Program-made: the position numbers
Assembly (NCBI GenBank): GCA_964610335.1
Contig: CAZSVP010000002.1
Span: 146,887-210,886, forward strand
DNA length: 64,000 nt
Origin: an uncultured Candidatus Saccharibacteria bacterium
Lineage (GTDB): Bacteria; Patescibacteriota; Saccharimonadia; CAILAD01; BJGX01
Reading direction: 5' to 3'
Shown here: positions 43,601-46,600 of the stretch, piece by piece
How positions within the stretch are numbered: position 1 is the first letter of the stretch
Layout: every line of letters begins with the position of its first letter

Positions 43601-46600
43601 AATAATCTCTGCCTTCTTGATCTTGGGCAGCAATGATTTACTAGCTAGCCAATAGTAGCTACGATAGGTATAGTAGGAACATATTTTTTCCTCGTTTTTT
43701 TATACTTTGATTACATCAGACTTAATATCTAGTCTACCCTATGGGCACCAAGTAAGATCGCCACCTGTCGGGGCATACTCTCTTACTTCGACCTGCGTAC
43801 CTACAGCGAATGGTCTTTTAGAATCTTTAGCAACTATGTCTGCGCAAGTTTGTTTTACATGTGTATTTGGAAACCATCTCGTATATGGTACGTCGCTTGA
43901 CTGTACCCAATTGCCACTAGAACGAAGGTTAAGTATTGTTATCCCACCCGCCATCGAGGTAAATCCATTGACAGTATCAGGGTAAGCATTTGTGTACGCT
44001 CTAGAGGCTTGACCAAAGCGTACGATGACGATACCAATAACTGCAACCACCACGACCAAAATAAGTGCCATCCACCAACGATATCTAAATTGTCTAGGTT
44101 GACTCGATTTGGCAGTATTTGTTCTGTTCTTGGATTTTGTAGCTATCGGTTTGCTTACCTTTATTACTAATGCTGTTATGTTTGTACTTATTATAGATTG
44201 TTAATCAGTAATATCAAGGTCGTTAGCTCATCCATAAGTGATTTTTACCGTACGTATTTGCATTTTGTCTATATAAACCAGCAACAAGTTAATAAGCTAG
44301 ATCTCAAAAATATTGAGCCTGCTACACGTAATGTTGTGACCCATGTCGAAGTAGAAGCTAAACTTAAATAGATTTTGTCAGGCATGATTACGAACGCTCC
44401 TGTTTGAAGTATGTTTATTAAGAAGTCTCGTTACGCCACAAAAAAATAAACAGTAAAAAAACTCTCGCCTGGGATCTAGATGATTGTTTTACATTTCGAG
44501 TGTTACTGACACTGGACAGTGATCACTGCCCATCTGTTCAGCATGGATCTCAGCCTTTTTGATCTTGGGCACCAGTGATTTACTGGCTAGCCAGTAATCT
44601 ATGCGCCAACCCACGTTGTTAGCCCGCGCATTGGCCCAGTGCGTCCACCAGCTGTAGTGACCATTGCCCTGGGTGAAGATGCGAAATGTATCGACAAATC
44701 CAGCATCAATAAAGTTATCAAAACCTTCGCGCTCCTCCGCAGTAAATCCCTTTTTACCGACATTTGGCTTAGGTCGAGCTAGATCGTCTTCGGTGTGGGC
44801 CACATTTAAGTCCCCACAGAACAGTACTGGCTTGGTCTTTTCCAGGCTTTTGCAATATTCCAAAAAGGCCGGATCCCAGTGCTCATGCCGCAGTGGTATG
44901 CGGCTAAGATCGTCTTTGGCGTTGGGCGTATAAACTGTTACTACCCAAAACTTGTCAAATTCGGCCGCAATTACCCGACCCTCGGTACTGCTATCACGAT
45001 CGGCATGATCAGTTAGGTTGTATTTCTTAGCAATCGCATCGGGAAAACCATTTACCACCTGGATTGGCTCAACCTTGGAGAAAATTGCAGTACCACTGTA
45101 TCCCTTCTTTACAGCCGAATTCCAAGCTTCGTGATAGCCAGGTAGCTCGATCTCGACTTGATCTCGCTGTGCCTTAGTCTCTTGCAGGCAAAGTATGTCT
45201 GGGCTGTATTTCTTTATGAACTTTTGGAATTCACCTTTTTTGATAACGGCGCGAATGCCGTTTACGTTCCAGGAAAATAGGTTAATCATGGAGCAATTGT
45301 ACCAAAATCTGTAAGTAAAAACGACGGAACCCCCGGCAGGGAGCCCCGCCAGGGGTGTTTGTTATGACTCGAAGGACTCCAGCTCAGCGATAGCACGTCC
45401 GAAGTCCATCATCAGCTGGTATCGCGGCGAGGAGACCATCCGACCGTAGGCAACTTTGCTGGTATGCGTGCCAACCTGTCTCACCGACCGACGATCTCGC
45501 GACATTGCCACGGTCCACTGCGTGATGTCAGGATCGCCATCGCCGAGCTCCTGAAGCAGCATACGCAGCTGATCCACCGAAACAGTGTCCACTCCTGAGC
45601 GAACCCGAAAAATCAGCGTATGAGTATATGCGCTGGCTGGCACAGAGCCACCTACCGCACCGGCTCAAAGCGCTGCTTGTTCGACTCCATGCGCTGTTGC
45701 CACGCTGCCACCGGATCTACTTGCAATGCCTCAGCCATGATCTCAGCCAGCACCAGCAAGTTGCCAATCACGCTCTCACGTACCTCTGTGGCGTCAAGCG
45801 GATCACCATGCTCGAAGTCGTGAGCTGCATCAATCACTACGCCACCGTATCGATGCACATCACGAGCTAGCTGCTGCCACCAATCCCGCTGGCTAGCCTC
45901 GCTTTCATCACTGATTCGACTCGCATGCCCCTCAAGATCGAAGTGCTCGTTGACCCGAGACTGACTAGCACGCTGGTATGCGACTCCAGGATCCACACCA
46001 GTTGCACAACTGAGCTGAAGTGCGTGCATCAGTACATCGGGCATCACAGCGCTACGTAGCTGGTCCATGGCAACTTGGCTCAGATCTTCAGCAGCCCGCT
46101 CGATGCGGCGCACACAGCGGTCTAAATGGATCGCAATGTGCCGCATCCGCTCTGCGTACACCATGAGAAGCCAATAGCTCTCGTCGTACATCGCTTGCTG
46201 CTGACGCAGAGCGAACAGATCTTGGGTTTCGAAAAAGTATGGCATGGTTGCTCCCATATCGAGGTTCGGATAGTTGCATTGTTGCGAACTAAATACATTG
46301 TGCAAGAAATTGATATACAACACAAACATAAGTTTTACATACCAAAATTGCCGCACCAAAAGCACGGCTACTAATCATTTAGAGATTAAAACCACAAGCG
46401 GACGGTTTTGATATACACAATCAAACTAACCGGCCGCTTGCAAGATTTTTATCTCGAACAACACAGCAATTCCTTGGTGTTAATGATTAAACTAACTATT
46501 GATTTTTAGGGTGCAGGCCTTTGAAAGCCTTGGTTTGCATGCGCTCAGCTCGCATTGCCCACTTGGTAGCCATTTCATCGAGTAAATCCTCGACAACTTG

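Follow-up and report, generated by a model that had tools for sequence, protein, structure and literature searches.

In active MazG proteins, as in the dimeric dUTPases, Mg2+ is coordinated by four acidic residues, arranged as an ExxE motif on one helix and an ExxD motif on the next, which in Mycobacterium tuberculosis MazG are E119, E122, E138 and D141 (PMC10014863). The M. tuberculosis protein is a single chain of two similarly folded tandem domains, and has been superimposed on Escherichia coli MazG (PMC10014863). Here we analyse a pair of genes, D1 and D2, on a 64,000-nucleotide stretch of DNA from an uncultured Candidatus Saccharibacteria bacterium (contig CAZSVP010000002.1 of assembly GCA_964610335.1, positions 146,887 to 210,886 of the forward strand; hereafter the window, whose own numbering is used throughout). 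D1 (45652..46245, minus strand) starts at ATG and encodes an acidic protein of 197 amino acids plus the stop codon (isoelectric point (pI) 4.95), and D2 (45362..45643, minus strand) starts at GTG and encodes a protein of 93 amino acids with a near-neutral pI of 6.7. We consider it roughly an even call that the two form an acquired operon encoding a pseudo-dimeric, non-canonical MazG-like protein, which would act on a phosphorylated nucleotide through one composite site, and a co-translated partner.

D1 gave no match at E ≤ 1 in Pfam, NCBIfam, PADLOC or PHROGs. When 1.8 billion representatives were searched exhaustively with HMMER, three distant proteins emerged that align to D1 residues 5-102 only (E 6e-5 to 7e-4), and a profile search from those three led to a family of 23 clusters of single-domain proteins, ~100-135 residues long and without a Pfam domain, one member of which carries the JGI label 'NTP pyrophosphatase (non-canonical NTP hydrolase)' (NTP, nucleoside triphosphate). 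The signature of this family is Q..D...W......RH..LH...G......E..EHG........E.(V)PD.....L...N....L......R...N. When the family profile was compared with PDB sequences, the top six matches were all MazG-like (2q73, 5ie9, 2q5z, YpjD 2gta, DCTPP1/RS21-C6; E 5.5e-4 to 0.03), with SSO3215 (1vmg) and MazZ next in the list and below significance; against a small alignment of MazG PDB sequences, the family scored 94.6% in hhalign (E 6.5e-8, 80 columns). The C-terminal half of D1 in turn aligned with the family at 96.3% (hhalign, E 1.7e-9), placing HDFEHGD on the family's cE.kEHGk. The two halves of D1 also match each other (BLASTP E 0.001), and each separately matches family members. Because both halves match a family that itself matches MazG-like proteins, D1 reads as a fused pseudo-dimer, and these comparisons show it as a putative tandem of two very diverged MazG-like four-helix units of ~95 residues each. 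Through the same indirect similarity, D1 would belong to the all-alpha NTP pyrophosphohydrolase superfamily (MazG/HisE/dimeric dUTPase).

A preliminary description of the window had likened the pair to an NTP-pyrophosphohydrolase-like enzyme with a partner; the MazG-like fold is upheld by the profile chain through the family, and support stops at that level. When the 24 sequences comprising the D1 N-terminal half and 23 family members were searched against Pfam, one matched PF12643 (E 0.008) and one PF03819 (E 0.073), both below threshold. An AlphaFold2 model of D1 (predicted local distance difference test score (pLDDT) 69) has a 4+4-helix layout, with structural comparison scores barely above those of generic helical bundles, and we treat structure as corroborative; the Foldseek comparison that had been suggested found no match to the model below E 0.1 in the PDB. 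The genomic surroundings of single-domain relatives suggest a role in nucleotide metabolism: one of their genes adjoins those for ThyX and thymidylate kinase, and another overlaps with a NUDIX gene. As a separate observation, the relatives P0008, P0011-P0014, P0016 and P0026 (one of them from a Chlamydiota metagenome-assembled genome (MAG)) carry an N-terminal hydrophobic, signal-peptide-like extension, which is unusual for a MazG-type hydrolase.

The two units of D1 retain different parts of the family signature. The N-terminal unit (residues 1-105; 45931..46245, minus strand) keeps D21, W25, R35, H36, H40, E53, V67, P69 and D70 and lacks the family's G46, E56, H57, R93 and N97. The C-terminal unit (residues 106-197; 45655..45930, minus strand) keeps G135, E145-H146-G147, R185 and N189 and lacks the RH..H and PD positions. 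The conserved polar residues of the family are in this way split complementarily between the halves, the C-terminal one retaining exactly G135, E145, H146, R185 and N189, which match the losses of the N-terminal half, and none of the others, and most of the polar residues that D1 retains are identical in the three known sequence variants. Such a split is the expected look of a fused dimer that may have kept one of its two inter-subunit sites. The acidic, His/Asp/Glu-rich stretch to which the preliminary description had drawn attention, AAHDFEHGDPLD, lies in the second unit (residues 140-151; 45793..45828, minus strand) as a His/acid-rich loop aligned with the family's cE.kEHGk; 9 of its 12 residues are identical across the three D1 variants, F144, G147 and P149 being the ones that vary. 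At the first-helix acid positions the N-terminal half has H40, L41 and C44 and the C-terminal half is unalignable, while S158...N162 occupy the second-helix acid positions of the C-terminal half. Of the canonical acids, the intermediate family retains just the second-helix pair, E66 and D70, with RH..LH in place of the first acidic motif.

Orthologues of the pair were taken from metagenome assemblies, yielding 10 loci (L001-L010) that represent three sequence variants of one lineage and are non-independent. D1 is ~95% identical to the window at the DNA level in L001-L008 and ~80% identical in L009 and L010, in which D2 is 86-88% identical. Among orthologues 5% and 14-20% diverged in DNA, with synonymous divergence (dS) reaching ~1, the ratio of nonsynonymous to synonymous divergence (dN/dS, Nei-Gojobori) was 0.10-0.20 for D1 and 0.09-0.24 for D2. 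D1 and D2 are real genes under purifying selection, and their reading frames, Shine-Dalgarno sites and junction are undamaged at all 10 loci. A further observation concerns D2 only: in comparisons of the window or L001 with L009, its dS (0.31-0.46) is under half that of the adjoining D1 (0.80-1.10), which hints at recombination or at an added constraint on the nucleotide sequence of D2.

The genes had been described as a two-gene GC-rich operon, and this is borne out by two minus-strand open reading frames (ORFs) with GC contents of 56.2% (D1) and 57.1% (D2), against 45.7% for the window, and an 8-nt spacer between the D1 stop codon and the D2 GTG. Third-codon-position GC (GC3) is 0.60 in D1 and 0.63 in D2, compared with 0.38-0.50 in adjoining genes. 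A GGGAG Shine-Dalgarno sequence (46251..46255, minus strand) lies 5 nt upstream of the D1 ATG and is kept in all orthologues. The Shine-Dalgarno sequence of D2, AGGTGG (45648..45653, minus strand), extends from within the D1 stop codon to a point 4 nt short of the GTG, the junction reading CGG-TAG-GTGGCTCT-GTG. Two details of the preliminary description needed adjustment: its D1 ORF was right, the 198 amino acids having included the stop codon, and the GTG does follow AGGTGG, the quoted spacings of 9 and 5 nt each being one too many.

The stop-Shine-Dalgarno-GTG junction of L009, the most diverged orthologue, is identical to that of the window, and the 83-residue D2 proteins called in relatives begin at an ATG that is missing from the window. 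Codon 11 of D2 is ATT in the window, which leaves GTG as the sole plausible start if the predicted first beta strand is to be included. Some gene callers extend D1 to 225-237 residues; this longer frame is excluded by a 1-nt frame-breaking indel between the window and L009 in the AT-rich leader upstream of the ATG. A promoter scan of the region upstream of D1 found no sigma-70-type promoter. The GC-rich minus-strand terminator hairpin reported after D2 was recovered at 45329..45356 (minus strand), beginning 5 nt past the D2 stop codon with a 12-bp stem and a 4-nt loop (−25 kcal/mol; z = −3.3 against shuffled sequences). A U-run (45317-45321) begins 8 nt past the stem, and the hairpin is probably a terminator forming the 3' end of the foreign segment described below.

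The GC-rich segment extends approximately from 45325 to 46300 (unstranded). It lies between a small conserved gene with its terminator (46496-46666, minus strand; 56 residues, basic, MQMKRKTLRRFRRVSRNLLHDRQVVEDLLDEMATKWA...) and the promoter and coding sequence of xth (exonuclease III, 44489-45289), which is downstream of D2. A small gene of 56-61 codons, to which no family could be assigned, is found directly upstream of xth in six of six Saccharibacteria loci inspected (L012-L014, L016, L025, L026), and the window xth matches Saccharibacteria MAGs at 70-85% identity. In the closer relatives with local synteny (L012, L013, L014) the site is empty, the 61-residue gene preceding xth by ~158 bp in the same orientation; in the window the distance is 1.2 kb, and the surplus DNA is exactly the D1-D2 GC-rich segment with its hairpin. 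A tblastn search of the 80 species-level loci recovered around xth found D1 or D2 in none of them. Elsewhere the same position holds other genes: a three-gene AT-rich set in L016 and L026, part of that set in L025, and a GC-rich 230-residue ORF resembling the N terminus of PurH in L011 (L011 1264-1956). Because relatives carry it either empty or with different cargo, the spacer upstream of xth is a variable slot. These comparisons show that a compositionally foreign segment of ~1 kb was inserted at this site and then kept under selection.

The island is longer in L009, where D2 and the hairpin are followed by an additional GC-rich orphan gene of 361 codons, G3, which is absent from the window lineage. 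The hairpin and its tail (GGGGGTTCCGTCGTTT) occur twice in L009 as near-identical copies, after D2 (7462-7500) and after G3 (8645-8685). Recombination between two such copies would yield the arrangement seen in the window, and the direct repeat could drive either the loss or the gain of G3. The hairpin is single in the window, even when three mismatches are allowed, and a search of JGI metagenome contigs gave no match to it; the island comes without an integrase, a transposase or a repeat family. We do not claim a target-site duplication, as the flanks (46330-46391 on the left, 45290-45323 on the right) both resemble the ancestral spacer and the T-run and −10-like box that they have in common are generic. 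An integron cassette, as the word 'cassette' in the preliminary description might imply, was likewise set aside. Such a cassette would have an attC site at its end, would belong to arrays with common attC architecture and would lie near an intI gene, whereas the hairpin here is a fully paired GC stem whose tail looks like that of a terminator, and it occurs just once in the window; no search aimed at intI was made.

Full-length homologues of D1 form two clusters among 5.8 billion and those of D2 only three, all from the same Saccharibacteria lineage. D1 and full-length D2 are paired at all 10 loci found, with the 8-nt junction shared and at a single chromosomal site, so that the co-occurrence expected of the pair holds within its three non-independent variants. 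No D2-like neighbour was found beside single-domain relatives of D1, whose neighbours are unrelated (for example, a membrane-like 97-residue ORF after P0007), and no relatives of D1 or D2 were found in phage GenBank records (tblastn) or IMG/VR. D2 is predicted to be an alpha+beta protein of the order beta-alpha-beta-beta-alpha. It gave no match at E ≤ 1 in Pfam, NCBIfam, PADLOC or PHROGs and none in a profile search against PDB sequences, and is an orphan with no detectable relatives outside its own lineage. A Phd/YefM-like fold, suggested by the order of strands and helices, found no support in Pfam and is a lead only.

These observations are consistent with the following scheme. A foreign segment of ~1 kb would have entered the spacer between the 56-61-residue gene and xth in the ancestor of one narrow environmental lineage of Candidatus Saccharibacteria. 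It forms a self-contained two-gene operon, equipped with Shine-Dalgarno sites, coupled translation and a hairpin terminator of its own, and has since been retained by purifying selection. D1 would derive from a family in which RH..LH...G...E..EHG...E..PD...R...N replaces the canonical ExxE...ExxD magnesium site, two copies having been fused head to tail. The fusion would keep one composite nucleotide/metal site spanning both halves, with which D1 would bind, and probably hydrolyse, a nucleoside triphosphate or some similar phosphorylated nucleotide. The coupled GTG start ties synthesis of D2 to that of D1, and D2 would most likely act as a stoichiometric partner of D1, whether as a regulatory or specificity subunit or as an inhibitor.

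Several points weigh against this scheme. The link between D1 and MazG is transitive, because D1 matches MazG only via the intermediate family: no significant direct match was obtained between D1 itself and MazG models or structures, and the D1 profile returned only noise from PDB sequences. The pattern of complementary loss lacks statistical significance across the full set of 22 conserved columns and is clear for the polar ones only. What suggests an interaction between D1 and D2 is gene order and coupling alone, and the D2 model is of such low confidence (pLDDT 58.6) that its fold matches are meaningless. By the metal-ligand criterion, moreover, D1 is not a canonical MazG, because on alignment its N-terminal half keeps one of the four canonical acids (D70) and its C-terminal half none; three of the four ligands, as defined in PMC10014863, are lost in the first and all four in the second. 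D1 could therefore be a non-catalytic pseudo-enzyme. It would then be a catalytically dead scaffold with a MazG fold, forming with D2 a structural or regulatory complex that might serve, for example, as a factor for the epibiotic lifestyle of Saccharibacteria. The replacement of several family-invariant residues in each half fits such a role, as does the clear purifying selection to which D1 is nonetheless subject. This rival stays a serious one because the catalytic acids are missing, if a doubtful one on our estimate. Against it, the remaining His, Asp, Glu and Arg residues are typical of metal or phosphate sites and mostly identical in the three variants, their complementary split is the one to be expected if a single composite site had been retained, and no signal peptide or secretion signal is apparent by eye in D1 or D2.

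The preliminary description had also raised a toxin-antitoxin-like pair. In a toxin-antitoxin or abortive-infection-type conflict module, one product would inhibit growth, through nucleotide depletion by D1 or an activity of D2, and the other would neutralise it, the module persisting by addiction or by an anti-phage benefit. Compatible with this are two small, tightly coupled genes running in the same direction, of which the first encodes an acidic protein (pI 4.95), together with foreign composition and a slot that holds different cargo in other lineages. MazG-type enzymes do occur in conflict systems, mazG being part of the mazEF operon and phage Atd1 degrading (p)ppGpp and blocking TIR-STING killing (bioRxiv 10.1101/2022.06.09.495361). 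We nevertheless find the toxin-antitoxin label unlikely, since nothing beyond the small size and coupling of the genes speaks for it: no toxin, antitoxin or defence model matched in Pfam, NCBIfam, PADLOC or PHROGs, neither protein has a DNA-binding domain, and D2 is not basic (pI 6.7). Purifying selection on the pair is ordinary, as is its divergence relative to neighbouring genes. Of the hallmarks of type II toxin-antitoxin systems, the pair displays adjacent coupled small genes and lacks both known domains or families and a patchy, multi-copy, mobile distribution. It occupies one site in one lineage, where toxin-antitoxin modules are scattered, with no extra copies or mobility genes and no occurrence in the phage or IMG/VR sets; a plasmid collection was not searched. 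Decaying passenger DNA, a phage or mobile-element leftover with no present function, would account for the orphan status and foreign GC content, and for an island that is losing or exchanging parts, as G3 and the second hairpin of L009, absent in the window lineage, would suggest. Such a leftover is highly improbable, given dN/dS values of 0.09-0.24 in both genes at dS up to ~1, frames, Shine-Dalgarno sites and junction that are intact at 10 of 10 loci, and no similarity to phage records or IMG/VR contigs; because both genes are under selection, junk DNA is excluded. A bolder proposal, which we regard as quite unlikely, is that D1-D2 is an undescribed two-component, nucleotide-centred conflict system taken up by a host-dependent bacterium of the candidate phyla radiation (CPR). 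A single-chain, pseudo-dimeric MazG-fold enzyme whose active site is built on His and not on acidic residues would there destroy a signalling or modified nucleotide, or deplete a nucleotide pool, under the control of D2, and the pair would exemplify a larger group of GC-rich orphan islands in this genome, the donors of which current sequence databases lack.

By itself the pair is a modest result, a fold assignment for two orphan genes in which the toxin-antitoxin label is unsupported. It does expose an unannotated MazG-related sub-family of at least 23 clusters, none of them matched by Pfam, in which histidines replace the Mg-binding glutamates and whose chemistry may differ from that of known house-cleaning NTPases. 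D1 would represent a natural single-chain version of the dimer, in which complementary loss predicts which residues of each subunit form the active site. The setting may interest more than D1-D2 alone: a reduced Saccharibacteria genome carries several selected GC-rich orphan islands, with no donors found among ~15 billion proteins, a pattern that bears on the sources of accessory genes in small CPR genomes.

At least five further GC-rich islands (52-68% GC, GC3 0.55-0.90) are present in the window, at 3401-4501, 14351-15001, 53151-53851, 55001-55451 and 61301-63901. They are scattered between housekeeping genes of ~44% GC and have no hairpins comparable to that of the D1-D2 island. Their small ORFs (141, 116, 173, 141, 111 and 142 residues) gave no significant matches in Pfam, NCBIfam or PADLOC. 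One island ORF, at 53272-53697, is present in sister strains in strongly diverged form (71-89%). Another ORF, at 62296-63840 (minus strand), encodes 514 residues that by eye resemble PurH (AICAR transformylase/IMP cyclohydrolase) in translation, and looks foreign (61% GC, GC3 0.79).

Near the D1-D2 site, a 39-residue remnant of the xth C terminus (43550-43666, minus strand) is 74-79% identical to intact xth and abuts a gene of 324 codons (42576-43550). Its position is exactly that at which intact xth ends in L009, and because of this the intact xth (44489-45289), together with a 110-residue orphan (43739-44071), looks as if it had been inserted as a replacement, cutting short the original xth. 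The window xth protein is 69-76% identical to its counterparts in many MAGs of Steroidobacteraceae and other Pseudomonadota, a level similar to that seen with most Saccharibacteria, which suggests inter-phylum transfer or contaminated bins. On the other side, a 101-residue PQ-loop-like gene (47169-47474, minus strand) is intact in the window, L006 and L009 and appears degraded in L001-L005, L007 and L008, where it is represented by two short fragments. A stand-alone receiver-like ORF (46617-47204, plus strand) has a weak, sub-threshold Response_reg match (E 8e-4); the ORF showed no output domain, and no kinase gene was noticed nearby.

Among described proteins, the small MazG-like NTP pyrophosphohydrolases (Bacillus subtilis YpjD 2gta; 5ie9; 2q73/2q5z; mammalian DCTPP1/RS21-C6 6sqw, 2a3q) resemble D1 in a unit of ~95-100 residues, predicted to be four-helical in D1, and in the order of its sequence blocks, Q..D...W, a long helix 2, and a long helix 3 ending in ..D.L...L..AN...(I/V)DL, followed by R...N. 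Those enzymes are homo-oligomers of single units with ExxE...ExxD, whereas D1 is a covalent tandem in which the first acidic motif is RH..LH in the N-terminal half and lost in the C-terminal half, and the second is reduced to D70 and GN, respectively. In contrast to them, D1 is not reached at threshold by either the Pfam MazG (PF03819) or MazG-like (PF12643) model. The dimeric all-alpha dUTPases (Leishmania major 2yay, Campylobacter jejuni 1w2y, staphylococcal phage 5myd) differ too: D1 is 10-13% identical to them in sequence, and the metal ligands of the C. jejuni enzyme (E46, E49, E74, D77) are not conserved in it. The mazEF-mazG operon and phage Atd1 resemble the locus in placing a MazG-fold protein in a small, foreign-derived accessory operon. 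They differ in that the partner in D1-D2 is neither MazE- nor MazF-like and bears no likeness to any known toxin or antitoxin, and in that no phage association was found. A parallel in architecture exists with E. coli MazG (3CRC) and M. tuberculosis MazG, which, as predicted for D1, carry two tandem domains of similar fold in one chain; Lee et al. 2008 reportedly placed the main activity of the E. coli protein in only one of its domains. Those proteins are recognised by Pfam, have an intact EExx(E/D) motif and are widespread housekeeping enzymes, whereas D1 is confined to one lineage and is the product of a separate fusion event in another sub-family, which is unannotated. The superfamily itself is known; what is new here is a tandem fusion in an unannotated MazG-related sub-family, with an altered active-site signature and an orphan partner.

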